A stretch of 64,000 nt of DNA. It comes from an uncultured Eubacteriales bacterium (GTDB taxonomy: Bacteria; Bacillota; Clostridia; Oscillospirales; Acutalibacteraceae). A model generated the notes under the pieces. It did not search any database. It was not told where the DNA came from and saw only the letters and a list, made by a program, of their open reading frames with translations. This document shows positions 5,574 to 55,904 of this stretch, one piece after another (position 1 is the first letter of the stretch; every line of letters begins with the position of its first letter). Where the stretch lies: assembly GCA_964624385.1 (NCBI GenBank), contig CAZUZV010000004.1, positions 12,348 to 76,347 on the forward strand, given 5' to 3'. The translations under genes and the position numbers were made by a program.

Positions 5574-7886
5574 ATGAACAATAAAATGATATGCAGCAAA
5601 TGCAAAAAGCGTCCTGCAGTAATTTTTGTGTCCCGTGTAGACGGAGACAAAACAACACAGGAAGGCTTTTGTATCAAATGTGCCACCGAACTCAACATCG
5701 GACCCATAAAGCAAATGATGCAAAATATGGGAATTACTGAGGATGATATTGAAGCGGTAAGTGAGCAGTTCGGCGATATGATGGAAAATATGGATGATTT
5801 CCAGCTTGGTGGCGCAGGAACAATGCCCTTTATGCAGAATTTCTTTAATAACAGTCCTTCAGAAAAGAATGCTCTGACTTCTGATGAGCAAATTGAAGAT
5901 GAAGCAGTTGAAGAAGAAAAAAATGAAAAAAAGAGCAAAAAGAAAAAAGGTAAACATAAAACAAAACGTAAGTTTTTAAATTCATATTGTACCGACCTTA
6001 CCGCAAGAGCGAGAGATGGTAAAATTGACAGAATTATTGGTAGAGAAACTGAGATTTACAGAGTTACTCAGATTCTTTGCAGAAGAACCAAAAATAACCC
6101 TTGCTTAATAGGTGAACCCGGTGTTGGTAAAACTGCAATTGCGGAGGGTCTTGCTCTTAAAATTGCCGCAGGTGATGTCCCTGCAAGAATTGCAGATAAA
6201 GAAATCCATCTCCTTGATTTAACATCTCTTGTTGCAGGTACTCAGTTCAGAGGACAGTTTGAAAGCAGAATTAAAGGTCTTGTAGATGAGGTGAAGGAAG
6301 AGGGGAATATAATCCTCTTTATTGACGAAGTTCATAACCTTGTAGGTACAGGTGATGCAGAAGGCTCAATGAACGCTGCAAATATCTTAAAGCCTGCTCT
6401 TTCAAGAGGTCAGATTCAGGTTATCGGTGCTACTACTTTTAATGAGTATAGAAAGCATATTGAAAAAGATGCAGCTCTTGAAAGAAGATTTCAACCTGTT
6501 AAAGTTGAAGAACCTTCTGTTGAAGAATGCTTCAAAATGCTTGTGGGAATTAAAGAATATTATGAAGATTTCCATAAGGTTAAAATTTCCGATGCCCTTG
6601 TTTACAGAGCAGTTCACCTTTCGGAAAGATATATTAATGACAGATTTTTGCCCGATAAGGCAATTGACCTTCTTGATGAGGCTTGCACTTGCGCAAACCT
6701 TCGTAATGTTGCCATAAGCGATTACCAGAAGCTTATGACTAAAATTGAAGATTTGAATGAGCGTCAGGAGGAGCTTCTTGACACAACTGCCGAAGAAGGT
6801 CCGGATTATGAAGCGATTTCTAATCTAAAAGCAGAAAAAATTGCTCTTGAAAAAGAAGCGGCACAGCTTAAAATCAAAGCCGATGATAACGATGTTACGG
6901 AAGAGGATATTGCAAAGGTAATTAACCTTTGGACAGGTATCCCAACATCAAAAATCATCGAGAACGATATGAGAAAGCTTTCAGGTCTTGAAAGCAAACT
7001 TAAACAGAGAATTATCGGTCAGGATGAAGCAATTGAGGTTCTTGCAGCAGCTATAAGACGAAGCAGAGTTCAGATTTCAGCCGTAAGAAAGCCTGCATCC
7101 TTTATCTTTGTTGGTCCGACCGGTGTGGGTAAAACCGAGCTTGTAAAGCAGCTTGCAAATGAGCTTTTTGAAACTCCTGAAACTCTCATTCGTCTTGATA
7201 TGTCCGAGTTTATGGAGAAGCATAGCGTTTCCCGTCTTATTGGTTCTCCTCCCGGTTATGTTGGTTATGATGAAGCAGGTCAGCTTACAGAAAAGGTAAG
7301 AAGAAAACCCTATTCGGTTGTTCTTTTTGATGAAATAGAAAAAGCTCATCCCGATGTTCTTAACATTCTTCTTCAGATTCTTGATGAAGGGAAAACTAAC
7401 GATGCTCAGGGCAGAACAGTAAGCTTTGAAAATACTGTTATTATTATGACCTCTAATGCAGGCAGTCATATAAGCGAAAATGCTCTTGGCTTTAACCGTG
7501 ATAAAAACCAAGCCTCAAAAGACAAAACGATGAAAGCGTTGAAAGAATTTTTGAGACCTGAGTTTTTAGGAAGAGTTGACGAGATTGTTACGTTCAACAC
7601 TCTCGGAAAAGAAGAGCTTGTTAAAATTGCTGAAGTTTTGTTAAATGAGCTTAAAGCACCTCTTAAAGATAAGGGCATTGACCTTGTTGTTAATGATGGG
7701 GTATATGAAATTATTGCCGATATGTCCGAAGATGGTGGCAGAGGTGCCCGTGATATAAGAAGAACAATAAGAAAAGAAGTTGAAGATAAAATAGCAAGCA
7801 TTCTTATTGATAATGCGGGTGAGCTTGTAAATGGAATTACTGTTAACAGCGTTAATGGTGAAATAGCAGTGGATTTCAAATCATAA
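5574..7886 (+). CDS. Clp/Hsp100 AAA+ unfoldase with ClpE-like architecture
   Basis: N-terminal CxxC...CxxC zinc ribbon (CSKC..CIKC) and a Lys/Glu-rich linker. Two AAA+ modules: Walker A GEPGVGKT and GPTGVGKT, Walker B ILFIDEVH and [11 protein letters not shown] ClpP-docking tripeptide present. No Clp_N repeat domain. Confidence 0.85.
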
Positions 7887-7894
7887 AACACAAA

Positions 7895-7928
7895 ATACCG
7901 ACAGAGCAAAAAGTTCTGTCGGTATTTT
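7895..7928 (+). terminator. Rho-independent terminator after the Clp ATPase gene
   Basis: 11-bp stem ataccgacaga/tctgtcggtat followed by TTTT. Confidence 0.8.
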
Positions 7929-7944
7929 AGAATTAAGGATATGT

Positions 7945-10530
7945 ATGAAAAAAGTGGTAGTCGGTATTATTGCCCATGTGGATGCAGGGAAAACAACTCT
8001 TGCAGAAACGCTTCTTTATAAATCGGGCAAAATAAGAAAATTAGGTCGTGTTGATAATGGTGACACGGCTTTGGATACCCATACCCTTGAGCGTGAAAGA
8101 GGTATAACAATATTTGCAGGACAGTCTGTGTTTAATATAGGTGATTTGGAAATAAACCTTCTTGATACACCCGGGCATGTTGATTTTTCTGCAGAAACAG
8201 AAAGAATGCTTAAAATTCTTGATTATGCAATTCTCGTTATAAGCGGAACAGACGGTGTTCAGGCTCATACAAGAACTTTGTGGAAGCTTCTTTGCGCCTA
8301 TAATATTCCCACATTCATTTTTGTTACAAAAATGGATTATGCAAGACTTTCTAAAGAAGAACTTATTGCTGATTTAAGAGGTCTTTGCTCTGATAATTGC
8401 ATAGATTTTTCAGATGAAGTTTCAAATGATTTCTTAGAAAATATTTCAATGTGTGATGAAGACGCCTTGGAAACATATCTGGAAAGCGGAACAATAGAAA
8501 CGGAGAAAATCAAAGAGTTAATAGTTTCCCGAAAATGTACTCCTTGTTATTTTGGTTCAGGGTTAAAAGGCGATGGCGTTGATGAATTTGTCAACGGTCT
8601 GGAAAAGTATATTTCAGTTAAAAAATACCCTGAAGAATTTGGTGCAAAGGTATATAAAATAACTCACGACCCCAAAGGCGAAAGAATAACCCATATAAAA
8701 ATAACAGGTGGTTCTTTAAAGGTTAAAGATACCGTATCAATAGATGAAAAAAACGAAAAGATTAATAATATAAGAGTTTATTCGGGCGAGAAATTTATAA
8801 CTGTAGAAGAAGCAACAAGTGGGGGCATATACGCTCTTACCGGATTGAATTCCGTAAATACAGGTGACGGACTAGGCTTTGAAACATCCTTTGGAAAAGC
8901 TTTTTTAGAGCCTGTTATGAACTATAGAATTGTTCTGCCTAAGGATTGCGACCCTAAAACCTTTTTTTCGAAATTAAAAGAGCTTGAAGCAGAAGACCCA
9001 CAGCTACATATCACTTGGAACACATACTTGCAGGAAATATATGTTTCCCTGATGGGTGATGTTCAAACTGAGATTCTCAAAAGTATTATTTCTACTCGCT
9101 TTAATGTGGATGTAGAGATTGATAGCGGTAAGGTGCTTTATAAGGAAACGATTAATAATAAGGTTGAGGGAGTAGGACACTATGAACCCTTAAGGCATTA
9201 TGCTGAGGTTCATTTGATTTTAGAACCCTTGCCAAGAGGTAGCGGTATTGTTTTCTCTTCAAAATGCAGTGAAGATTCATTAAGCCGGAATTGGCAGAAT
9301 TTAATTATGGCTCATTTATCCGAAAAAGAGCATTTGGGCATACTTACAGGTTCGCCTGTAACTGATGTTAAAATCACTCTTGCTGCCGGTAGAGCACATT
9401 TAAAGCATACTGAGGGAGGAGACTTCAGGCAGTCTACATATAGAGCAGTAAGGCAAGGTCTTATGCAAGCAAAATCCATTCTTTTGGAGCCTTATTATAG
9501 CTTCAGACTTGAAGTTCCCACCGAACAAATCGGAAGGGCAATCAATGATGTAAGAATGAAAAACGGCACAATTGATTCTCCCGAGGATTTAAACGGAATA
9601 AGCATTTTAACGGGTAAAGCACCTGTTACAACATTGAATGGCTATGCTTCTGAGGTGGCTGCTTATACCGGTGGTAAAGGTAGATTGTTTCTTGAAGTAT
9701 GTGGTTATGATGTTTGCCATAATGCAGATGAAATAATTGAAAATTCAAAATATTCTCCCGAAAGTGATTTAGAAAACACTCCCGATTCAGTTTTTTGCGC
9801 TCACGGAGCAGGATTTAATGTTAAATGGGATAAGGTATTTGAATATATGCACATAGATTCTTGCCTTGAACAAGAGAAAACGCCATACGAGGTAAATCTC
9901 AATAAGCGTAATTTTCACATTGACGATAAAGAGCTGGAGGCTATAATGACCCGTGAATTTGGTGAAGACAAGCACCCATTTTACAGATATAGCCATAGTA
10001 AAACTCCTGCTAAACCCATTAATACGGAATATAATACGCAAATCTGTAAGAAGTATGTTATTGTTGACGGCTACAATGTGATTTTTGCTTGGGATGAGCT
10101 TAAAGAAATTGCAAACGATAATCTGGGGGTTGCACGGGATAAGCTTTTAGATGTTCTTTGTAATTATTCCGCTTTTACAAAATGTGAAACAATTGTAGTT
10201 TTTGATGCTTATAAGGTTTCGGGCAATAATGGGCAGAGGTTTAATTACAATAATATTCATGTTGTTTACACAAAAGAGCGTGAATTGGGGGATAATTATA
10301 TCGAAAAGCTTGTTAGCGATATAGGCAAAAATGAAAATGTCAGAGTTGTAACATCGGATAACCTTATTCAGCTTTCTTCTATTCGTTTTGGTGTGTTGCG
10401 CGTTTCCGCGCAGGATTTCAAAAGGGAAGTAGATGCAGTTGAAAAAAATATAGATGATTTGCTTTTCAAAATAAATAAACCCCGACCACAAAAAGTAGGG
10501 GAGTTAGTTGATTGGTTGTTAGAAAATTAA
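7945..10530 (+). CDS. Translational GTPase (TetM/EF-G-like, five-domain) fused to a C-terminal YacP/Rae1-type NYN ribonuclease domain
   Basis: G1 AHVDAGKT, G2 RGITI, G3 DTPGH, G4 TKMD; strong TetM-like similarity through about aa 640. The last ~165 aa carry the YacP/Rae1 motifs VIVDGYN, VVFDAY, GDNYIEKL and VTSDNL. Single uninterrupted ORF. Confidence 0.85.
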   Translation: MKKVVVGIIAHVDAGKTTLAETLLYKSGKIRKLGRVDNGDTALDTHTLERERGITIFAGQSVFNIGDLEINLLDTPGHVDFSAETERMLKILDYAILVISGTDGVQAHTRTLWKLLCAYNIPTFIFVTKMDYARLSKEELIADLRGLCSDNCIDFSDEVSNDFLENISMCDEDALETYLESGTIETEKIKELIVSRKCTPCYFGSGLKGDGVDEFVNGLEKYISVKKYPEEFGAKVYKITHDPKGERITHIKITGGSLKVKDTVSIDEKNEKINNIRVYSGEKFITVEEATSGGIYALTGLNSVNTGDGLGFETSFGKAFLEPVMNYRIVLPKDCDPKTFFSKLKELEAEDPQLHITWNTYLQEIYVSLMGDVQTEILKSIISTRFNVDVEIDSGKVLYKETINNKVEGVGHYEPLRHYAEVHLILEPLPRGSGIVFSSKCSEDSLSRNWQNLIMAHLSEKEHLGILTGSPVTDVKITLAAGRAHLKHTEGGDFRQSTYRAVRQGLMQAKSILLEPYYSFRLEVPTEQIGRAINDVRMKNGTIDSPEDLNGISILTGKAPVTTLNGYASEVAAYTGGKGRLFLEVCGYDVCHNADEIIENSKYSPESDLENTPDSVFCAHGAGFNVKWDKVFEYMHIDSCLEQEKTPYEVNLNKRNFHIDDKELEAIMTREFGEDKHPFYRYSHSKTPAKPINTEYNTQICKKYVIVDGYNVIFAWDELKEIANDNLGVARDKLLDVLCNYSAFTKCETIVVFDAYKVSGNNGQRFNYNNIHVVYTKERELGDNYIEKLVSDIGKNENVRVVTSDNLIQLSSIRFGVLRVSAQDFKREVDAVEKNIDDLLFKINKPRPQKVGELVDWLLEN

Positions 10531-10541
10531 ATAAAAAAACA

Positions 10542-10567
10542 GAACCGCTTCCTTTCGGAAGCGGTTC
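10542..10567. terminator. Bidirectional terminator between convergent genes
   Basis: Perfect 11-bp stem gaaccgcttcc/ggaagcggttc with a tttc loop. A-tract upstream and T-rich downstream. Confidence 0.8.
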
Positions 10568-10582
10568 ATTTATGTTTGCAGA

Positions 10583-12481
10583 TTAAACTCTAACGATTTC
10601 GTTATTTAATTCTTGAAGTCCATTCATAAGAGAGGAAGCAACATTTTTACCGAGAGAAATAAGCTCGTGGTAGTGATTTGCAGGATCGCCCATTGTGAAG
10701 TCGTTATCAGGAACAACATAACCAATAGCATCGTTCATAAGACCGAAGCATTTAACATCGCTACCGAAGATGTTGCAAGCGGGTTGAGCAGAAAATGCAG
10801 TTGCAGTAACAGAATTTGCTGCTAATAATGATGCACCGTTAGGAGCGATAAGATCCTGACAAATTTCACCGGGTAAGAACACTGTCTTGAACTGATTGCC
10901 CATTTCCATATAACCGATTTCTGTAATTGTCGCATAGGAGCCGTCTTCTTTTGCAATAACAACATAGTTAGCAAGATTAAGCTTACCAACAGTTTCAATA
11001 AGTGCGTTGGAAATCGGGATTTCAACCTGCTTGATGAGAAGGTTGAGGAAGGGTTCAACAACCTGTTCTTCGGGGATTACATCATTGCCTTCTTCATCTT
11101 TGTTCCAATTTTCGTACCAGATTGAGTATGCTTCGTTATCGCCGTATTCAGCAATTTCTTCTGCACAGTTGAGCATATCATCAGCTTCAACTTCTTCTTT
11201 TGTGAGAGTGAGTGAGAGAGCCATTCTTGCAAGCTCATATCCATATCTTTGAGATTCCTCAACTCTTTGTTCAGTGGGAACGCCGTCACCGGTAACACTT
11301 CTTGACATATATATACCTGCGATGGCACCCTGGAAGAACATAAAGTTGTAACCTGCATCCTCAAGGAATTTACCACAGTAGAAGAGATAGTCACCACTGA
11401 TTTCACGACCGGAGTTGGAGCTTGTGGGAAGACCTGCAACGTCGGGGTGAGCAGCAATGTTGAGCATCATTGTGGGAGTTTCACCTTCAGCATCAGGAAC
11501 AAAGACAAATCTTGAAATATCTGTCATAGCGATTTCTTTTTCACCGGTATAAACCTTGTTACCATTTGTGTCAATTTCGTAAATCATTTCGCCTGCTGAG
11601 GGGCGGTTTTTGTTATTGAAATAGTCCTGTCCGAGATCTTTTTCTGTATATGTAAGAACACCGGGTTGTAAATCTTCATAAGCATCAACAAGAGCATCAG
11701 CAACTCTTTCTTTAAGGAATGCCATATATGCCGGATTAGTGCCCTGAACAAGCTCTTCATCAGCACCCGTGCCGTTTACAATACCGTTACGAGAAAGCTT
11801 ATAAAGAAGTTTGGTCCAAAGACCTTCTGTGTCGATACAACTATGTGTATGAGTAGAAGAAACGTTGATTGAAACGATATCGTTAGCCTCTGCGAAATCT
11901 GCAAGAAGTGCACGAATATCCTTAATATCAGCGTTTGTAATACCGATACAGTCAATTGTTGCAAATAACACAGTACCTGAATCCGTACCATCGTTTATTG
12001 CAACACAACGAACCTTCATATCATCTTTGCCGATTCCGGGAATTTCAGCGATACCTTCAACAACATTTGAAAAACCGTTTTCAATTGCGATGTAACCACC
12101 GATGTAGTATGTACCATTGCTGTAATCATTAGGAATAAGGCTTTCGTTAGAATAACCGAGATTCCATTGTGCACCGTCTTCAGCCGAAGTGCGGAATTCA
12201 TTTCCTGTGCCTTCGTAGAAGTTTTCTGAGGCTTTAATTTCAGCACTTTCTTGGCTTACAAATCCGGGACCATCGTTAAACAAACCGGAGAAGAGGTTAA
12301 GAATAAAGTTTAAAAGTGTTTCAATAATGTCAGAAAAAATAACACCAATAGGGTCTTCGCTGTCATTGCTTATAATTGGATAAGCACTTGAAGCACTCGC
12401 TGTTGTTGCGCCGAAAGATGCAAAAGCAAGAGTCAACGAAAGAATAACAGCAATGATTTTTGTTAATCTGCTTTTTTTCAT
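10583..12481 (-). CDS. Secreted protein, neutral/alkaline ceramidase-like family (tentative)
   Basis: Start placed at ATG 12481 behind AAAGGAGA, giving signal peptide MKKSRLTKIIAVILSLTLAFASFGATTASA. Motif SSTHTHSCIDTEG resembles the THTHSGP zinc-site motif of neutral ceramidases. The ORF-track start at 12565 is probably too far upstream. Confidence 0.6.
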   Translation of the reverse strand: MKKSRLTKIIAVILSLTLAFASFGATTASASSAYPIISNDSEDPIGVIFSDIIETLLNFILNLFSGLFNDGPGFVSQESAEIKASENFYEGTGNEFRTSAEDGAQWNLGYSNESLIPNDYSNGTYYIGGYIAIENGFSNVVEGIAEIPGIGKDDMKVRCVAINDGTDSGTVLFATIDCIGITNADIKDIRALLADFAEANDIVSINVSSTHTHSCIDTEGLWTKLLYKLSRNGIVNGTGADEELVQGTNPAYMAFLKERVADALVDAYEDLQPGVLTYTEKDLGQDYFNNKNRPSAGEMIYEIDTNGNKVYTGEKEIAMTDISRFVFVPDAEGETPTMMLNIAAHPDVAGLPTSSNSGREISGDYLFYCGKFLEDAGYNFMFFQGAIAGIYMSRSVTGDGVPTEQRVEESQRYGYELARMALSLTLTKEEVEADDMLNCAEEIAEYGDNEAYSIWYENWNKDEEGNDVIPEEQVVEPFLNLLIKQVEIPISNALIETVGKLNLANYVVIAKEDGSYATITEIGYMEMGNQFKTVFLPGEICQDLIAPNGASLLAANSVTATAFSAQPACNIFGSDVKCFGLMNDAIGYVVPDNDFTMGDPANHYHELISLGKNVASSLMNGLQELNNEIVRV

Positions 12482-12659
12482 AATTTGTAATCTCCTTTTA
12501 TATTGCCGGATTTTTGACAATATTATTTGATAATATATTTTACAATACATTTCAAGTTTTTTCAACCATCAATTTTGCTAAATTACGAGGAGTTTATTAA
12601 ATGATTTGCACAAATTTTATTATTTTAAAAATTAAAGTAAAAGATAAGCGGATTTTATA

Positions 12660-12724: not shown

Positions 12725-13948
12725 ATGAAAAACTTAGATATAGCTAACGGCAGACTAAAAAAAGTCGTTGCGTTGCTTCTTGTGACCTGTATGGTTGTAG
12801 GTCTTCTTTCCAGCGCAGCTGTTAAGGTTGTTGCTTCCACCTACTATATGCAGACGAAGCGCAAATTGAAAGTAAATAATCCTATTGTTCAGCAGGCGAT
12901 TGACACAATAGTTGGTGACAATAACATTGCCGGTCCGGAAACTACAGCTCCTACAGTAACAGCACCGGCTACAACAGAAGCCCCCACAACACAGGCTCCA
13001 ACTACAGAAACACCTACAACCGAATCGGATACGTCTGAAGTTGCTTCTGATGAAACAACAACTACAACAACAGCTGTTAGCGGTTCAAGTGGCAGTTCTA
13101 CGGATATTTTAGGCACAATCACAGGCTTACTTGGTGGTTTGGGTAGTGTTGATATCGGTGGTATGCTCGACGGCATCGGTGATATGCTCGGCGGCCTAGG
13201 TGGCGGTTCTTCAGAAGAAACTACAACAACCACGGAATCTACAACCGAATCCAAGGCATCCAAAGCTCAGAAAAAAGAAGTTCTCAGTGAATATAACGCG
13301 GTTGTTAATTATGCAAAGAAGATAGGCAAACCGGCTTTCACAAAAGTAACTTACAGAACTCTTGAAAAAGATGGCGCTGCAAAATTGCTTTTCCGTAATG
13401 TTGAGTCGCAGTACCCCGAATATTTCATTTCCAAAGAAAATGCAGAAGCAGCACCAATTCTTGTTCCCGCAAATACTGAAACATCGGAGCTTTTGATTGA
13501 TAATGAATACTTTGCAGGTATGCTTGCAACAGCAGATGCTTCCGATGCTATTGAATCTGCAACAAGTGTTAAGCTTGAAGACGGTTCACAAAAGATTACA
13601 ATTACACTTCGTGATGAAGTTGATCCCGCTATTACAGTAGCTGATTCAAAAACAGCTGCAAGTTTCACAAGTGCGATGTTCCCTGTTATTGATGCAGAAA
13701 CAGTTAAAGAAAAAGTTGCAAGCACTTTGAAGATTACTAAAATTACCGGCGCAAATGTTACTTATACTGAATGTACTGTTGAACTCATTTTTAATCCTTC
13801 GTTGAATAGAATTATCAGTGTTAAGCAAACAGTTAAACACGTTGATAATGTCGAAGGTTATATTATTGAGGGTATGCTTCCTGTTTCGGGTTCAGCAACG
13901 GTAACAGAAATTTCTGAATACAGAGATTTCGACTACGGTCTTCTTTAA
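12725..13948 (+). CDS. Hypothetical secreted or membrane-anchored protein with Thr/Pro-rich and Gly-rich linkers
   Basis: RBS AGGGGGA and an N-terminal hydrophobic anchor. Linker TTAPTVTAPATTEAPTTQAPTTETPTT, then GGLGSVDIGGMLDGIGDMLGGLGGG, then a ~220-aa globular C-terminus. Confidence 0.7.
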   Translation: MKNLDIANGRLKKVVALLLVTCMVVGLLSSAAVKVVASTYYMQTKRKLKVNNPIVQQAIDTIVGDNNIAGPETTAPTVTAPATTEAPTTQAPTTETPTTESDTSEVASDETTTTTTAVSGSSGSSTDILGTITGLLGGLGSVDIGGMLDGIGDMLGGLGGGSSEETTTTTESTTESKASKAQKKEVLSEYNAVVNYAKKIGKPAFTKVTYRTLEKDGAAKLLFRNVESQYPEYFISKENAEAAPILVPANTETSELLIDNEYFAGMLATADASDAIESATSVKLEDGSQKITITLRDEVDPAITVADSKTAASFTSAMFPVIDAETVKEKVASTLKITKITGANVTYTECTVELIFNPSLNRIISVKQTVKHVDNVEGYIIEGMLPVSGSATVTEISEYRDFDYGLL

Positions 13949-13962
13949 TAATTTTAATTTTT

Positions 13963-13997
13963 GGAAGAACAGGTTAAAAACTTGTTCTTCCTTTTTT
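13963..13997 (+). terminator. Rho-independent terminator
   Basis: Stem ggaagaacagg/cttgttcttcc followed by TTTTTT. Confidence 0.8.
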
Positions 13998-14005
13998 ATA
14001 TTTAC

Positions 14006-14034
14006 TTGATAAATGATAATTGTTGTGCTATAAT
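14006..14034 (+). promoter_or_regulatory. Sigma-A-type promoter of the nusB operon
   Basis: TTGATA, 17-nt spacer, TATAAT. Confidence 0.6.
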
Positions 14035-14090
14035 TTTAAATTGATAAATTATAGGGTATAAAAGTACCTGTACTAACTGAGGAGATATTT

Positions 14091-14483
14091 ATGACAAGAC
14101 GTGAAGCAAGAGAACAAGCCTTTATTGTGCTTTTCGAAAAGATTTTTGATAATGAAACCCCGATTTCAGAAATTGTTGAAACTGCAAAAGATGCTGAACT
14201 TATAAAAATCAATAGTTTTGCAGAGAATGTTCTTAATGCGGTTGAAAACAATTCAGAGGAAATTGATAGCGTTATTGAAGCAAATTCTCAGGATTGGACT
14301 CTTGTGAGATTGCCCAAGGTTTCACTTGCAATTTTGCGCCTTGCAGTTGCAGAGATTAAATATATTGATGAAGTTCCCAACGGAGTTGCCGTTAATGAAG
14401 CTGTTGAACTGGCAAAAAAATACGGTACAAATGAAGATGCCTCTTTTATAAACGGTATCCTCGGAACTATTGCTAAAGAGTAA
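14091..14483 (+). CDS. nusB: Transcription antitermination factor NusB
   Basis: N-terminus MTRREAREQAFIVLF, 130 aa. Begins the conserved nusB-xseAB-ispA-dxs block. Confidence 0.9.
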   Translation: MTRREAREQAFIVLFEKIFDNETPISEIVETAKDAELIKINSFAENVLNAVENNSEEIDSVIEANSQDWTLVRLPKVSLAILRLAVAEIKYIDEVPNGVAVNEAVELAKKYGTNEDASFINGILGTIAKE

Positions 14484-32920: not shown

Positions 32921-34000
32921 TTATTCTATATTCCCGATAAACGCCGTGTCTGTGGGGTATTTCCCTCGGTGGTTTCTGTATTTTGCGGCACCGGATTCGA
33001 ATATAATATATTGTCCTTTCTCGCCTTGAACGATGCCTTCTGCCATTGGGGGAGCGGTTATGGTTTCTTTTAATAAATCGCTACTGCAGGCGAGAAGACT
33101 TATTTCCGTGTCGTCAACGGTATAAATACCGATTCTTTCCGATAAGAGAACATCGTCATAAACATAGATTATTGAGTTGTTCTTCCTTCCGTAGCTAGTG
33201 GAGAAAATGAGCTTACCGCTGTTTGTGAACGCCATACCCTGAACCTGTTCGGGAATTGCCAGGAAATAGTCGGGAATATAACCGTTGTTTTCGGAATTCA
33301 GCTTCTTAACATCGGGTAAACCGTCTTTTAATATATAACCCTCGCAATAGGCGTAGAAAGTTTCGCCACTTGCAAGTGTCGTTATTTTTCGGGTATTTTC
33401 TCTTGCAGAGTCGCTGCTTTCTATAAAGTCGCCCGTCCAGAGAATACCTTCGTTATAGCAAGCAAAAGAGCCGTAAGTGTTCAGCTTAAAATTGCTTTCA
33501 AATTTTAACATTTCCCCGTTTTTTAATTCTTTTAGTTTGTTAACCTCGAATATATAACAGGTGTTATCGCTTGTAATGTATACGTAATCTTCTGAAGAAG
33601 TAAGACCGCCTGCATGACCGTAATAGGCATTACCGTCAACGCTTTCTAAAGGAAATGCTTTAGTGAATTTTTTTGTTTGAGCGTCAATAAGCATTATCAT
33701 TGAGGGGTACGCACCATCCTCGTAATAACCGCTTACGGCATATAAATTCAACTTTCCGATATAGCAAATACCTTGGGGAATTATACCCTCAAAAAGTCCC
33801 GGTATTGTAAAATCTGGAGAGAACTCCTTGAAAAAGCTTTTATAATCCTCAACCTCTTCAATTTCGGATTCGGTAACAACGGATGTTTGGGTTATTATAT
33901 CTGTAATATCTTTTGTTTTCAAAACCTTCCAATCACCGCAAGAGCTAAAAAGAACAACAGACATTATCAGAGCCGTAATTCCAATAATTTTTCTTTTCAT
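32921..34000 (-). CDS. Hypothetical lipoprotein
   Basis: Start set at ATG 34000, giving MKRKIIGITALIMSVVLFSSCGD with a lipobox LFSSC. About 340 aa of beta-rich mature protein. The ORF track extends to 34045. Confidence 0.65.
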   Translation of the reverse strand: MKRKIIGITALIMSVVLFSSCGDWKVLKTKDITDIITQTSVVTESEIEEVEDYKSFFKEFSPDFTIPGLFEGIIPQGICYIGKLNLYAVSGYYEDGAYPSMIMLIDAQTKKFTKAFPLESVDGNAYYGHAGGLTSSEDYVYITSDNTCYIFEVNKLKELKNGEMLKFESNFKLNTYGSFACYNEGILWTGDFIESSDSARENTRKITTLASGETFYAYCEGYILKDGLPDVKKLNSENNGYIPDYFLAIPEQVQGMAFTNSGKLIFSTSYGRKNNSIIYVYDDVLLSERIGIYTVDDTEISLLACSSDLLKETITAPPMAEGIVQGEKGQYIIFESGAAKYRNHRGKYPTDTAFIGNIE

Positions 34001-34100
34001 AAAAATCACCGCACAAAGTATAACACAATTGTGCATAAATGGCAAATTATATTGAAAAAGTCATATTTTTACAAATTTGACGGAATTTCACTTTTTACTC

Positions 34101-35275: not shown

Positions 35276-36433
35276 GTGATTTTTTTGAAAAAAAGTAAAG
35301 TTGTTATTTCTCTTTTTTCCATTGTTTTGTCGGCTGTTCTGATGTTTTCGGTGTTTTCTTCCGATATTTTTAAAATTGATGCTGCTGCCGATGTTAAGCT
35401 TAACGGAGTCAGCGGAAAAATTGCAGAAATTAAAGACGATTTTTTAAACATATTTAACTATGATAGTAAAACCAAACAAGAAGGAAATATAACTTCAGGA
35501 GAGCTTCCGTATGTTTATGTTGGCGGATACCCAATTGGTTTAAAGCTTTATGCTGACGGTGTGGTTATTGTCGGAACAGAGGCAGTTGACACCGAAAACG
35601 GGCCTGTTAACACCGCTCAAAAAGCAGGGTTAAAACTGGGTGACATTATTAAAAAAGTTAATGGTATTGAGGTGAAAAGCAACACACAAGTTTCTGGGAT
35701 TATTGAGAAAAGTGCAGGTGAAATCCTGTTTTTTGAGGCAGAGCGTAACGGCAAGGTATTTGAGGCTTCTTTTAAAGCGGAATATTCTGTCAGTGAGGGG
35801 AAATATAAAGCAGGAATCTGGATCAGAGATAGCTCGGCGGGTATAGGAACAGTAACTTTTTGCACCGAAGACGGCTTCTTTGCTTCCCTGGGTCATGCAG
35901 TATGCGATATAGACACAAAATCAACTATTCCTATTTCACAAGGAGAATGCACACAGGCGAAAATCACGGGTTTTATTAAAGGTGGAAACGGAACCGCAGG
36001 AGAGCTTTGCGGTTATCTCGACAGTAACAAAACAGGTGTTATTTACAGTAACGATAATTTAGGGGTTTACGGAGAGTTCGATTCTGTTCCGAATGGTTTT
36101 GAAAAGCTTCAGATAGCTTCAAAAGATGAAGTGTGCGAGGGTGAAGCGGAAATTTTAACAACAGTTGAAAACGGAGTAATTGAAAGTTATTCGATAACCA
36201 TAGAAAAAATTGATGAAAATTCAACCGATAATAAAAACCTTGTTTTAAAAGTTACGGACAGAGATTTAATCGAAAAAACAGGTGGGATTATTCAGGGAAT
36301 GAGCGGTTCTCCCATAATCCAAAACGGTAAGCTTGTGGGCGCAGTTACCCATGTTTTTTTGAATGATGCTACGGGTGGTTTCGGCATTTTTGCTCAAACA
36401 ATGTCTGAAAAACTTGAATTTATAAAGAATTAA
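35276..36433 (+). CDS. spoIVB: Sporulation signalling serine peptidase SpoIVB (S55)
   Basis: Signal anchor, PDZ segment (GLKLGDIIKKVNGIEV), peptidase region with SLGHAV and GMSGSPI. Canonical position immediately upstream of spo0A. Confidence 0.9.
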   Translation: MIFLKKSKVVISLFSIVLSAVLMFSVFSSDIFKIDAAADVKLNGVSGKIAEIKDDFLNIFNYDSKTKQEGNITSGELPYVYVGGYPIGLKLYADGVVIVGTEAVDTENGPVNTAQKAGLKLGDIIKKVNGIEVKSNTQVSGIIEKSAGEILFFEAERNGKVFEASFKAEYSVSEGKYKAGIWIRDSSAGIGTVTFCTEDGFFASLGHAVCDIDTKSTIPISQGECTQAKITGFIKGGNGTAGELCGYLDSNKTGVIYSNDNLGVYGEFDSVPNGFEKLQIASKDEVCEGEAEILTTVENGVIESYSITIEKIDENSTDNKNLVLKVTDRDLIEKTGGIIQGMSGSPIIQNGKLVGAVTHVFLNDATGGFGIFAQTMSEKLEFIKN

Positions 36434-52823: not shown

Positions 52824-54200
52824 TTAAAAGCCTTTTATATTCTTTTCATATTCTGTGAAGAATCTTTCAAGGATTTCTTCATCTTTTTTGTTACCTCTCA
52901 GGCAAATTGAAACGCTTAAATCTCCGTTAATGCTCAGAGCCGTCATAACCGCGCAAGGCTTGTTTTTTGCAGCACCTGCTACGAAAGCGGAAAACGGCTT
53001 ATTGTCTGCAAGCGAGAATGCAACTGTGTCAATTTTACCAACATTGCTGACTGATAAAGTGGGGTTGCGGTAAAAGAGCTTTACAACGGGCTCTGCCTGT
53101 AAATAAATCATTGATTTATAGCCTATATTAAGAAGTGGCAGTCCGTGAAGTCCCATAAATTCATCAGCTTTAAGTTCTTTTGTTTTCTTAATGACAAGTG
53201 AAAGTGTTTCCTTTAAATTATTACCCATTCTTTCAATTGCGCAATGGCTGAAGGAAACGTGATTAGTGTAGCCTATGGTTGAGGTGTCTTTAATATGCCG
53301 TCTTAAATCGGTAGCACATGAAACGCTTATACTTTCGTTACTTTTGAAATCAGCAACCTTTTTAAGTGCGTCAATATAAGATGCCACTAGCAAATCGTTA
53401 ACTGTACCGCCTTGAGCTTTTGTATAAGCTACTGCTTTGTCAAAATAATCTTTTTCGATTTTTCTCCCGACAATAACAACATCTTTCTCAATATTGTCAT
53501 TTTGGAAGGGAAAACGATGATTGTCACGAGGAGAAATATTGGCAAATTGAAGCTTCGCTTTCTTTTTAAAACCAGGCTCCATATCCTTGTAAACCTCAGT
53601 ATATTTTCTTGAGCCCACAGAGAAGCAAACAGGGGAGATGCCGTTTAAAACGTAATCGGAATAGGCTTTGCAAAAGTCGCTCCAAAACGCCTTGAAACCG
53701 CCACCATCCATACACATATGATTCCATATAAAAAGTATGTATGTCTTACCGGAATGATAATATAATCCTATATTTATCTGGATATTGCTTGAAAGTGGGA
53801 TTTCCCGGGAAAAGAATTGCTGTTTTGCTTTTTCCAAGTCCTCAACCTCTTGGGCAAATACCGTTTCATTAATGTTGTAATTCGCAACTTTCCAGTAAGG
53901 TGTTATGGGGTTTCTTATAACTCTCGAATGTAAACAAGGTGCGCTTTCAAGGGCGCAAACAGCAACATTTTTGAAGGCTTCTTCATCAACTAAAAAGTCA
54001 TAATCAACCTCAAAGCGTGCCAGCCTGTCCATATATTTACGGCACATAAGATTAACCTTATCATACATTTCGCAGGGTAGGGTCTTTTTTAAGAGCTTGG
54101 GATTATTCTCTTTGAACTCAATTAAATCCGTAATAACCTTTTCATCGGTCAAGCCTTTATTTCTTAAAGATTGCGATTCAGTTTCAAAATTAATTTTCAT
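52824..54200 (-). CDS. Stand-alone condensation/CAT-fold (HxxxD) acyltransferase
   Basis: Active-site-type motif WNHMCMDGGG (HxxxDG), downstream VNDLLVASY and C-terminal SNVG, as in NRPS C-domains and WS/DGAT enzymes. 9-nt gap after the GH3 gene. Confidence 0.7.
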   Translation of the reverse strand: MKINFETESQSLRNKGLTDEKVITDLIEFKENNPKLLKKTLPCEMYDKVNLMCRKYMDRLARFEVDYDFLVDEEAFKNVAVCALESAPCLHSRVIRNPITPYWKVANYNINETVFAQEVEDLEKAKQQFFSREIPLSSNIQINIGLYYHSGKTYILFIWNHMCMDGGGFKAFWSDFCKAYSDYVLNGISPVCFSVGSRKYTEVYKDMEPGFKKKAKLQFANISPRDNHRFPFQNDNIEKDVVIVGRKIEKDYFDKAVAYTKAQGGTVNDLLVASYIDALKKVADFKSNESISVSCATDLRRHIKDTSTIGYTNHVSFSHCAIERMGNNLKETLSLVIKKTKELKADEFMGLHGLPLLNIGYKSMIYLQAEPVVKLFYRNPTLSVSNVGKIDTVAFSLADNKPFSAFVAGAAKNKPCAVMTALSINGDLSVSICLRGNKKDEEILERFFTEYEKNIKGF

Positions 54201-54209
54201 TTAAGTACC

Positions 54210-55904
54210 TTATTCTTCAATAATGTGGGAGAAGAAAAATTCCTTCTTTTCTTCTGTGTCAATAACCTTAATTGGCTTAACCTGATTAAGATTTGCACCA
54301 CGCTTTCTTAATACCTCACGGTAGTCGTCATAGGTTCCGTGGCGCAGGAATTTAACCCGGCAATGACCGAGAGCACCGCTTTTTATAAGGGGCTCAACTG
54401 AAACATTACCCTTGCAGAGCATTTTTTCAAAAAGCTGATTGTATGTAGCTTTCTTTTCTTCGCTTATGGGGGTAGCCGCTTCAATAAGAAGAACATAGTG
54501 TCCGGGTGAGGTGGTGCGGTCGGGGTAAATACTGTAGCCGATGTATAAATCATCTGTTTCATCGGAAAGATTCTGCACTATTTCGTCAAAAGCCATCTGG
54601 CTGATTTTTTCACCGCTTATGTTTGCAATTTGGTTGAGTCTGTAACAGAATGTTACTTTCGGTGATTGATGATAGTAACCCGTAACCTTTATAACATCTT
54701 CAATTCTGTAGCGGTAAAAGCCACTCATATTTGTAAGGATTATTTCGTATTCCTTGCCTATTTCAAGGTCTTTTATAGTGAGAAGCTTGTCATAACCCTC
54801 CTGGTCAACAGGACGGAATTCGTAAAAACCGTTCTGAGGGAGCATTACATATTCAAAGGAGTTCAGCTCAATGGGAACTGCCATAAAGGCTTCTGTTGCG
54901 GTGTAGCCCAGATAGTGAATGGGCATATCTTCGCCAATGTAACGGCGAAGCTTTTTAGCGTATAGAGAAAGCGCACCCGTTCCCATACCGTAAAGCCACT
55001 CAACCTTGGGCCATATACGAGGAATAATGGGGGAATCATCAAAGCCCTTTTGGAACTCTTTTCTCAATTCATCCGCTCTTTTGGGATTGGGTTTAAGCTT
55101 TTTATTGTATTTTGCTCTTAATTCTTCAGGCATTTTTATACTGTCGTTTATAACACCCTTTTCAATATCATCGCAAAGCATTTCCCAGTTTTCTTCCATA
55201 TAGAAAAACATAGATTCAAGAGTTGTGATGAAAATTGTGCCGAGATAGCTTACTTTTCTGTTAGGTAAAGCAAAGCGCAGTTTAAGATAGTGCATATCCA
55301 TATCGCTGTCAGGAGCAGGGAAAAGCACTTCCTTAGGTGATGTAGCAAAGAAGGGAACAAGAGGACGGAGGTTTAAAAGAGGTACGGAAGAAAGGCAACT
55401 GATAGTACCGCCTTTTACTTTTCTTCTTCCCGTTTCCGCAGTCAAAAGTCCCTTTTGCGGTGGTAATACTCTGCCTTTTTTCAAAAACCATTTTACAGCG
55501 CAGCCTACGGGCGCAGAAAAACCGAAGCATTGAGCAACCCATTCCGCCCAGAATGAAAGGGGAACGAGCTTTTGCTTACCGGTACTGCCCGAGCTTTCTG
55601 TAAATCGCCTTATCGGGAAATTAGTGATAAGCCCTCGTTTGCCCTCAGCCATCTGCCAGACATATTCGTCATAATCGGCATAGGTTGAAAGGGGAACAAT
55701 TTTCTGATAATCTTCAACAGATTTAACATCCTTGAAATTATTCTTTTTGCCGTAAACCGTGGTTTTATTTATTCTCATAAGACGCTTAATTGTCTTTTCC
55801 TGTAGCTTCCAAGCCCGTCTTGAATAAATTGCTAATTTTGTATGCTCGCATACACCCAAAAATCCACCAAACGCTGCAAGGATATAACCTTTTATATCAA
55901 TCAT
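54210..55904 (-). CDS. GH3-family adenylate-forming acyl-acid amido synthetase-like protein
   Basis: TESSGSTGKQKLVP (ANL/GH3 P-loop motif), YRYRIEDVIKVTGYY (GH3 YRxGD motif), C-terminal NLNQVKPIKV. 564 aa. Confidence 0.75.
   Translation of the reverse strand: MIDIKGYILAAFGGFLGVCEHTKLAIYSRRAWKLQEKTIKRLMRINKTTVYGKKNNFKDVKSVEDYQKIVPLSTYADYDEYVWQMAEGKRGLITNFPIRRFTESSGSTGKQKLVPLSFWAEWVAQCFGFSAPVGCAVKWFLKKGRVLPPQKGLLTAETGRRKVKGGTISCLSSVPLLNLRPLVPFFATSPKEVLFPAPDSDMDMHYLKLRFALPNRKVSYLGTIFITTLESMFFYMEENWEMLCDDIEKGVINDSIKMPEELRAKYNKKLKPNPKRADELRKEFQKGFDDSPIIPRIWPKVEWLYGMGTGALSLYAKKLRRYIGEDMPIHYLGYTATEAFMAVPIELNSFEYVMLPQNGFYEFRPVDQEGYDKLLTIKDLEIGKEYEIILTNMSGFYRYRIEDVIKVTGYYHQSPKVTFCYRLNQIANISGEKISQMAFDEIVQNLSDETDDLYIGYSIYPDRTTSPGHYVLLIEAATPISEEKKATYNQLFEKMLCKGNVSVEPLIKSGALGHCRVKFLRHGTYDDYREVLRKRGANLNQVKPIKVIDTEEKKEFFFSHIIEE

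Follow-up and report, generated by a model that had tools for sequence, protein, structure and literature searches.

A translational GTPase fused to a Rae1/YacP-type nuclease in Clostridia: a candidate factor of translation quality control

Architecture and integrity of the fusion gene

The gene considered here lies at 7945..10530 on the plus strand of a 64,000-nucleotide stretch of DNA from an uncultured Eubacteriales bacterium (contig CAZUZV010000004.1), the whole of which is referred to as the window. It encodes a single protein in which a complete translational GTPase of the EF-G type is followed by a linker and a Rae1/YacP-type NYN nuclease domain, and judged by its sequence it is a further member of a known but uncharacterised fusion family. 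What is new here is that the GTPase forms a non-Tet subfamily of its own that includes nuclease-less members and carries an invariant signature at its domain IV tip, and that the fusion has a conserved C-terminal extension of the GTPase module and a basic tether; furthermore, findings on Rae1 from 2025-2026 allow a more specific collision or stall model than earlier proposals. As to function, we consider the chances about even that the protein is a translation-quality-control factor, in which the GTPase would guide the Rae1-type domain to cleave messenger RNA (mRNA) on stalled or collided ribosomes and thereby feed rescue by transfer-messenger RNA (tmRNA).

The open reading frame is uninterrupted, with an ATG start and 861 codons plus stop, just as described in the original prediction, which had been made from the letters of the window. 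A Pfam search with curated cut-offs found six domains on the one polypeptide, all of them exceeding their thresholds, namely GTP_EFTU, EFG_IV, EFG_C and NYN_YacP, which had been anticipated, plus EF-G_D2 and EFG_III, and the proposal that one polypeptide unites a Rae1-type NYN nuclease with a translational GTPase complete in itself is thus borne out. An identical 861-residue protein is encoded by an independently assembled contig (Logan, public run SRR14307658). Among the matches listed in a protein search there are at least 120 close clusters of 848-883 residues with 65-92% identity to the window protein, all of which combine PF05991 with EF-G-type GTPase domains, and among the best 150 matches of a HMMER search of 50%-identity cluster representatives 138 are full-length (820-1200 residues) and share the same order, GTPase then NYN, at identities falling to about 40%. 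Full-length fusion homologues number in the hundreds, their sources being genomes at NCBI as well as ENA, JGI and Logan, and isolate genomes with the fusion include those of Ruminococcus albus 7, Eubacterium rectale, E. eligens, Butyrivibrio proteoclasticus, Clostridium thermocellum, C. cellulolyticum and Desulfitobacterium hafniense. Genomes were moreover scanned with two peptide patterns, one of which, DTPGH[VI]DF, also matches ordinary EF-G, about 25 of the 80 loci listed being relevant; in these 25 related loci no pair was found in which the two halves are separate neighbouring genes. The agreement with the original description is far beyond chance, and we can conclude that the gene is real and intact and not an assembly artefact.

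One full-length fusion gene (best tblastn segment 49% identical, GTPase part 52%) was found on a contig binned as Barnesiella intestinihominis of the Bacteroidota (CAVJLG010000039.1), which is either a misbinned Firmicute contig or a case of horizontal transfer. Positions 12906-14264 on the opposite strand of that contig give a further, distant EF-G-like match.

The GTPase module

All features of the gene described below are on the plus strand. A G domain with G' insertion occupies residues 4-223 (7954..8613; GTP_EFTU, E 8e-48) and carries the motifs G1 (AHVDAGKT, residues 10-17), G2 (RGITI, 52-56), G3 (DTPGH, 74-78) and G4 (TKMD, 128-131). It is followed by EF-G-type domains II (residues 233-310) and III (residues 322-392) (8641..9120; EF-G_D2 36.8 bits and EFG_III 32.2 bits, cut-off 27 bits), by domain IV (residues 395-510; 9127..9474), which is identified by EFG_IV (E 1.5e-20) and by alignments to TetM, TetO and EF-G, and by domain V (residues 513-593; 9481..9723; EFG_C, E 2.4e-16). 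The G1-G4 motifs, the catalytic histidine of DxxGH, the five domains (G with G', II, III, IV and V) and the EF-G fold are those of the EF-G/EF2 translational GTPases. Two structure models were available, with predicted local distance difference test scores (pLDDT) of 72 and 69, and the top Foldseek matches of the full-length model are EF-G chains (E 1e-49), with TetM matched as well. The GTPase is thus complete, as had been predicted, but its EF-G-type domains stop at about residue 593 and not at about 640; the motifs quoted at the outset for both parts of the protein are all present.

Conservation was assessed in a MAFFT alignment of the window protein with 138 divergent full-length relatives, and the counts and fractions given hereafter refer to these 139 sequences. 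K16, T55, D74, K129 and D131 are found in 139/139 and H78 in 138/139, while position 128 of the G4 motif holds N in 127 sequences and T or S in 6 each, the family norm being NKxD. The TKMD motif, singled out earlier as unusual, is therefore present but a mere clade-level variant. GTP specificity is expected to be kept despite it, since the specificity-determining aspartate is invariant and since GTPases of the signal recognition particle type use TKxD.

In EF-G and TetM, domain IV reaches into the 30S A site, and its tip loops touch the decoding site in the former and dislodge tetracycline in the latter. In the window protein all three tip loops carry neither the EF-G nor the TetM signature, as its alignments with TetM, TetO and the EF-G of T. 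thermophilus show. Tip loop I, G411-H-Y-E-P-L-R-H-Y-A-E-V-H423 (9175..9213), is subfamily-specific and has the family form G-H-[FY]-E-P-L-R-H-Y-A-E-V, where EF-G has GGRGQYGHV and TetM has PNPFWAS; G411, H412, E414, P415 and L416 are kept in 139/139 and H418 in 138/139, a conservation at least that of the nucleotide-binding motifs. Tip loop III, G482-R-A-H-L-K-H-T-E-G-G-D-F-R495 (9388..9429), aligns with G504-L-Y-Y-S-P-V-S of TetM and G-S-Y-H-E-V-D-S of EF-G, and here D493 is invariant, H488 is found in 138, K487 in 129 and H485 in 121 of the sequences. The strong constraint on the domain IV tip fits a function inside the decoding site.

The GTPase module ends in a conserved, family-specific extension, residues 591-637 (9715..9855), with the pattern C-H-N..E-V-I..Y-D-P..D..N-P..S-V-F-C-x-H-G-A-G..V-x-W..V..Y-M-H. 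Conservation reaches 0.99 for each of Y603, S615 and F617, 0.98 for D608, 0.97 for G621, 0.94 for H636, 0.88 for C618 and 0.87 for C591, and the arrangement of cysteines and histidines (C591, H592, C618, H620 and H636) suggests a putative metal site. A profile search gave no match to the extension in the PDB, and AlphaFold confidence for it is low both in context and in isolation.

The nuclease domain and its tether

The Rae1/YacP-type NYN domain comprises residues 705-846 (10057..10482) with the four acidic residues D708, D754, D783 and D805, and its motifs are VIVDGYN (705-711), VVFDAY (751-756), GDNYIEKL (782-789) and VTSDNL (802-807). It scores 152.3 bits (E 1.6e-44) against NYN_YacP, the Pfam gathering threshold of PF05991 being 24.6, and covers positions 1-144 of the 166 in the profile. 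With the sequence of the B. subtilis Rae1 crystal structures the C-terminal part shares 37% identity (E 2e-23 and 3e-27), and a model of the nuclease matches these structures, 5mq8 and 5mq9, in Foldseek (E 1e-11, template modelling score 0.72-0.78), which are its sole matches with E <0.001. The original assignment of the C terminus to this family is thereby upheld. D708 aligns with D7 and D783 with D81 of Rae1, and D7N D81N is the published catalytic mutant of that enzyme, the double mutation abolishing activity (PMC10351889). All four aspartates, whose conservation had been held open to refutation, are kept throughout the family (D708 in 137, D754 in 138, D783 in 137 and D805 in 139 of the aligned sequences), and these counts, taken with those of the GTPase motifs, show that both catalytic centres are under purifying selection. 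The NYN domain looks active as a catalytically competent endoribonuclease of the Rae1 type. Pfam threshold, acidic residues and fold all place it in Rae1/YacP, but the stand-alone gene in an mrnC-rlmB(yacO)-yacP operon that is typical of Firmicutes is not what is found here, the domain being fused to a 700-residue N-terminal part.

Between the extension and the nuclease lies a linker of 67 residues, 638-704 (9856..10056), where the original prediction had placed one of about 55 residues without setting the family-specific extension apart. Its length varies from 31 to 192 residues across the family with a median of 85, and residues 643-699 have pLDDT <50 and are predicted to be disordered. Alignment and models nonetheless reveal a short conserved helical motif within it, IDDKELEAIMTREFG, at residues 659-673 (9919..9963), with conservation of 0.91 for E663, 0.88 for I667 and 0.78 for G673 and a helix at 661-672 in the models; this motif is without counterpart in five nuclease-less relatives described below, which stop before it. 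The segment just before the nuclease, residues 674-703 (9964..10053), is a basic tether by charge count, net positive in 94% of the 139 members with a median of +5 and 27% K+R, compared with median net charges of -21 for the GTPase part and -5 for the NYN domain. A disordered tether with a basic segment fits a nuclease that would reach or bind RNA outside the factor site.

In a 5.6-kb region scanned for promoters, the best sigma-70-like match falls inside the open reading frame at 9920..9947 on the plus strand (TTGACG, 16-nt spacer, TATAAT; 11/12), about 110 nt ahead of the NYN core. An internal promoter for a nuclease-only product was considered and rejected, since there is no in-frame start codon before the catalytic D708, and the match is probably due to chance.

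A GTPase subfamily distinct from EF-G and the Tet proteins

The window protein was scored against curated NCBIfam models and their cut-offs. The nearest model, tet_protect, gives 450.6 bits against a cut-off of 775, and the remaining models for tetracycline ribosomal protection are missed by more (tet_protect_M_W 329 vs 1100, Tet(Q) 317 vs 1425 and Otr(A) 315 vs 900 bits), while the EF-G models are likewise below cut-off (TIGR00484 279 vs 659 and NF009381 330 vs 583 bits). The protein is not an EF-G proper, the tip motifs GGRGQ and SYHxVDSS being replaced by EPLRHYAEV and RAHxKHTEGG. Nor does it have the hallmarks of tetracycline protection, since it falls short of the curated cut-off and since L505-Y506-Y507-S508-P509-V510 of TetM aligns with R483-A-H-L-K-H488 at zero identity. 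Tetracycline ribosomal protection genes typically reside on mobile elements and are horizontally spread, and the window gene does not share this property. It should also be mentioned that loop III is functionally the most important loop of TetM for tetracycline displacement (PMC4750697). The label 'TetM-type' given to the GTPase in the original prediction was thus overstated, as the curated Tet model fails and none of the TetM loop III residues occur, and the drug-bound ribosome that it offered as a possible target finds no support in context or sequence.

Five loci in the genome scan (L014, L018, L019, L020 and L022) encode GTPase relatives of 648-741 residues that are without a nuclease, their hosts being Bifidobacterium avesanii, a Coriobacteriaceae isolate, Neobacillus cucumis, Intestinibacter bartlettii and a Clostridiales metagenome-assembled genome (MAG). 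These proteins have the same domain IV motifs and the same extension and end directly past the latter ('...YMH'). No NYN gene was found within 10 kb of them (for L020, within the flank examined), and the notion that they are halves of split genes was rejected, as they are genuine GTPase-only proteins with no NYN gene nearby. L014, L018 and L019 score 370-436 bits, below the Tet cut-off, and are below the curated EF-G cut-offs too. In a neighbour-joining analysis of the GTPase region the nuclease-less forms fall inside the family radiation, and every member is about equally far from TetM. We conclude from these comparisons that the GTPase and its extension constitute a distinct, uncharacterised subfamily of translational GTPases, nearest to yet distinct from the Tet protection proteins, and that the NYN domain was probably added to it within Clostridia and Desulfitobacteriia.

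Prior reports and annotation

Tet proteins with a YacP-like NYN domain were reported from ten Clostridiales genomes by Atkinson in 2015 (BMC Genomics, Additional file 8; PMC4342817), who proposed testing their 'rRNA RNase ability', and a TetM-like/NYN_YacP fusion was also reported, without functional data, by Matelska et al. in 2017 (NAR; PMC5499597). Both papers placed the GTPase under 'Tet' (PMC4342817, PMC5499597). The window protein is 49-52% identical from end to end to the R. albus, E. eligens, C. cellulolyticum, C. thermocellum and D. hafniense members of Additional file 8, and it has the invariant columns of the TetM-like-NYN_YacP fusion family in both halves. The statement in the original prediction that no functional description was known accordingly holds for the function, none having been found, but not for the architecture, which had been catalogued in 2015 and 2017 and is also present in the domain databases. 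The fusion does not appear in those passages and sections of recent Rae1 papers that were consulted.

In NCBI annotations of MAGs, several homologues go by the name 'TetM/TetW/TetO/TetS family tetracycline resistance ribosomal protection protein'. The dominant Clostridia of gut and rumen (Lachnospiraceae, Oscillospiraceae, Ruminococcus and E. rectale) carry the fusion family in abundance. Many of its members bear a tetracycline-resistance annotation that the results above suggest to be wrong, and this naming probably inflates resistome counts, those of gut metagenomes included.

Genomic context

The fusion gene is preceded by ecfA-ecfA-ecfT-truA and genes for DUF5711, cvpA, pgsA and a clpC-like protein, and followed by nusB, xseA, ispA, dxs, tlyA, nadK, argR, recN, addBA, spoIVB and polC. 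Its GC content of 36.8%, and 28.6% at third codon positions (GC3), is in line with the neighbouring genes. In a relative whose fusion is 78% identical (GCA_017626295.1) the upstream gene order is the same and the neighbours are 59-88% identical, whereas 25 more distant loci have no neighbours in common with the window gene. These observations point to a native, vertically inherited gene and not an acquired resistance determinant, because GC and GC3 are native, synteny is kept and divergence is in step with the chromosome. An attempt to derive the function from the gene neighbourhood gave no clue, synteny being limited to close relatives, and a role in anti-phage defence was likewise set aside, the fusion being without PADLOC match to defence systems.

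A hairpin TACCGACAG / CTGTCGGTA followed by TTTT can be read from the sequence at 7896..7924 (plus strand), between the stop codon of the clpC-like gene and the fusion gene, and is possibly a weak terminator or attenuator, although a consensus scan did not call it a terminator. An AAGGA ribosome-binding site is found at 7935-7939 (plus strand), 5 nt before the ATG, and a bidirectional terminator-like hairpin with an 11-bp stem and 7 G-C pairs lies at 10542..10567 and separates the fusion gene from its convergent neighbour 10583..12565. The latter, on the minus strand, encodes a 660-residue protein with an N-terminal hydrophobic segment and no Pfam family, and beyond it 12725..13948 (plus strand) encodes a 407-residue protein rich in Thr, Ser and Gly, likewise of no Pfam family.

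The ClpC-like neighbour, at 5574..7886 (plus strand), is a double-AAA+ protein of 770 residues with AAA-type Pfam matches from residue ~154. The Pfam search gave no Clp_N match for it, and its N terminus carries CxxC...CxxC (CSKC...CIKC). Its gene adjoins the fusion gene in the 78%-identity relative too, but not in distant fusion loci. Elsewhere in the window, 35276..36433 encodes a protein with a SpoIVB-type peptidase S55 domain, and the host appears to be a spore-forming Firmicute; 54210..55904 (minus strand) encodes a full-length protein of the GH3 family (N-terminal, middle and C-terminal domains; E 2e-70), a family best known from plant acyl-acid amido synthetases; and 52824..54200 (458 residues) and 32921..34045 (374 residues), both on the minus strand, match no Pfam family at E <= 1e-8.

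Proposed mechanism and alternatives

In the mechanism that we propose, the N-terminal 637 residues would, by homology, dock in the factor-binding site of the ribosome with the domain IV tip entering the 30S A site, and the GTP-bound GTPase would recognise a ribosome unable to proceed, whether stalled or collided. Docking would raise the local concentration of the nuclease, tethered by a flexible linker of about 60-85 residues, at the mRNA of that ribosome, the nuclease would cut this mRNA in the manner of free Rae1 in B. subtilis, GTP hydrolysis would free the factor, and the truncated mRNA would lead to rescue of the ribosomes by tmRNA/SmpB. We infer binding to the ribosome, a reading of its state, mRNA as the substrate and a coupling to tmRNA. 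The constraint on the domain IV tip, the disordered basic tether and the native housekeeping context all fit such a GTPase-guided nuclease. In a 2026 preprint (PMC13622287) it is furthermore reported that Rae1 is required for the rise in tmRNA tagging upon ribosome collision, that it generates tmRNA substrates on collided ribosomes, and that there is no structure of ribosome-bound Rae1, as its binding is transient. The premise of the original prediction that Rae1 enters the A site is outdated, having been revised in 2025 (Deves et al.).

Several points weigh against this proposal. Full-text literature searches found no functional study of the fusion family, and free Rae1 in B. subtilis acts without a GTPase partner, so a fusion is not needed for Rae1 chemistry. 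The GTPase module also occurs without the nuclease, and its own function need therefore not be stall sensing, both structure models are of moderate confidence and without inter-domain information, and ribosomal RNA (rRNA) or transfer RNA (tRNA) may also be conceived as the substrate. In addition, the Rae1 cut site at -12, where the mRNA leaves the stalled ribosome, is remote from that ribosome's own factor-binding site, and the geometry is therefore easy only with the GTPase on the trailing ribosome or with a fused nuclease that cuts elsewhere, for instance on the mRNA entry side. The -12 site is at the mRNA exit of the leading ribosome, abutting the mRNA entry of the trailing one, and within a single ribosome the factor-binding site is much closer to the mRNA entry than to the exit. 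It would thus be most economical to place the GTPase on the trailing collided ribosome, an alternative being an entry-side cut at a stalled ribosome.

A bolder form of the proposal, which we regard as tentative and rather improbable as it stands, makes the GTPase a dedicated sensor of ribosomes unable to translocate, namely the trailing rotated ribosome of a collision, with GTP-dependent docking placing the Rae1 domain on the inter-ribosome mRNA at -12 from the leading A site, in effect a bacterial no-go-decay factor in one polypeptide. The rotated ribosome is the natural substrate state of EF-G. If this were true, the fusion would act as a 'Rosetta stone', indicating that free Rae1 of other Firmicutes works from the factor-binding or mRNA-entry side of the trailing ribosome, and the nuclease-less relatives would be GTPases of a new class in Actinobacteria and Bacilli that senses stalls or collisions. 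The fusion is a promising, neglected handle on the way in which Rae1-type nucleases are targeted to ribosomes, since it could in principle be locked there by D708N together with a non-hydrolysable GTP analogue, making the recognition of stalled or collided ribosomes by Rae1 testable.

Of the other explanations, the one that survives best, though we think it unlikely, is that the GTPase delivers the NYN domain to rRNA or tRNA, either in maturation or in inactivating or turning over ribosomes that are damaged or idle. The 'rRNA RNase ability' idea of 2015 (PMC4342817) comes near to it, and a role of YacP in rRNA/tRNA processing was inferred from the mrnC/rlmB operon by Anantharaman and Aravind and by Matelska et al. 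(PMC5499597); the basic flexible tether could moreover reach rRNA near the factor site, and the sequence specifies nothing about mRNA. B. subtilis Rae1, the only experimentally studied homologue (37% identical and of the same fold), however cleaves translated mRNA with effects via tmRNA, the operon-based inference is older than the Rae1 experiments, and the fusion gene is here not beside rRNA-processing genes.

That the protein protects ribosomes from tetracycline as a Tet protein to which a nuclease was added, which is what the database name implies and what was raised as a possibility in 2015 and 2017, is very improbable. The best matches among curated models and PDB sequences are indeed Tet proteins (tet_protect 451 bits; TetM E 4e-82), and some homologues are so named by NCBI, but 451 bits are to be compared with 775, and the shortfall is larger still for the Tet(M/W/O/S), Tet(Q) and Otr(A) models. 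In addition, R-A-H-L-K-H takes the place of TetM L505-Y-Y-S-P-V510 and all three tip loops differ and bear an invariant signature of their own, the gene lies in a syntenic housekeeping region with native composition, no mobile elements and divergence in step with its neighbours, and the identity of homologues declines continuously from 92% to ~40%, unlike that of horizontally spread resistance genes.

Slightly less probable still is that the NYN domain is a non-catalytic module for RNA binding or anchoring and that the protein is only a GTPase, for example a factor for ribosome splitting or rescue. The GTPase and its extension are conserved without NYN in relatives, and B. subtilis MutS2 is a precedent of a collision factor with an inactive nuclease-like domain (PMC13622287), but the retention of the four active-site aspartates in 137-139 of 139 divergent members would be unexpected in a degenerate domain. 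Finally, an artefactual fusion, in which an assembly error or frameshift joined two adjacent genes, has a negligible probability in view of the identical protein in an independent assembly, the hundreds of full-length homologues from four sources, the isolate genomes with the fusion and the 25 loci without separate halves.

Comparison with known systems

The window protein shares domain order and motifs with the TetM-like/NYN_YacP fusions of Atkinson (2015) and Matelska et al. (2017), from which it departs only in two minor points, the T that takes the place of N in G4 as a clade variant and a relatively short linker (67 vs a median of 85 residues); in contrast to the published filing under Tet, the GTPase here separates as its own subfamily, nuclease-less members included. 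Rae1 (YacP) of B. subtilis (PDB 5MQ8) resembles its NYN_YacP domain in fold and in all four acidic residues at 37% identity, and the chemistry is presumably the same, as by inference is the substrate class, translated mRNA. Rae1 is however a stand-alone protein of ~170-180 residues, encoded in an mrnC-rlmB-rae1 operon (PMC5499597) and transiently associated with the ribosome, whereas the domain in the window is permanently tethered to a translational GTPase and encoded in another gene context.

With Tet(M) and Tet(O) the protein has the five-domain EF-G-like GTPase in common, and among solved structures Tet(M) shows the highest sequence similarity to it (29% identity in Foldseek to 3j9y; phmmer E 4e-82). 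It is nevertheless set apart from them by its score (451 vs 775 bits), by having none of the Tet residues in loops I and III, by a different and longer C-terminal extension, and by a chromosomal housekeeping context instead of a mobile element. The likeness to EF-G consists in the overall fold (Foldseek E 1e-49), the G' insertion and the G motifs, and in H485, which by our reading of the alignment occupies the position of the histidine at the domain IV tip of T. thermophilus EF-G; it differs in that all EF-G models are below cut-off, that loop I is 4 residues shorter with another invariant motif, and that an extension, a linker and a nuclease are added at the C terminus.

Hbs1-Dom34, in which a GTPase of the translation-factor superfamily probes a problematic A site in no-go decay, is a functional analogy only, as a GTPase-delivered A-site probe. 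The same is true of SmrB of E. coli and Cue2 of yeast, where, according to the 2026 preprint (PMC13622287), a nuclease at stalled or collided ribosomes cuts the mRNA and rescue follows, the SMR fold of these nucleases being unrelated to NYN. Neither SmrB, Cue2 nor Hbs1-Dom34 combines nuclease and GTPase on one polypeptide, as the window protein does.

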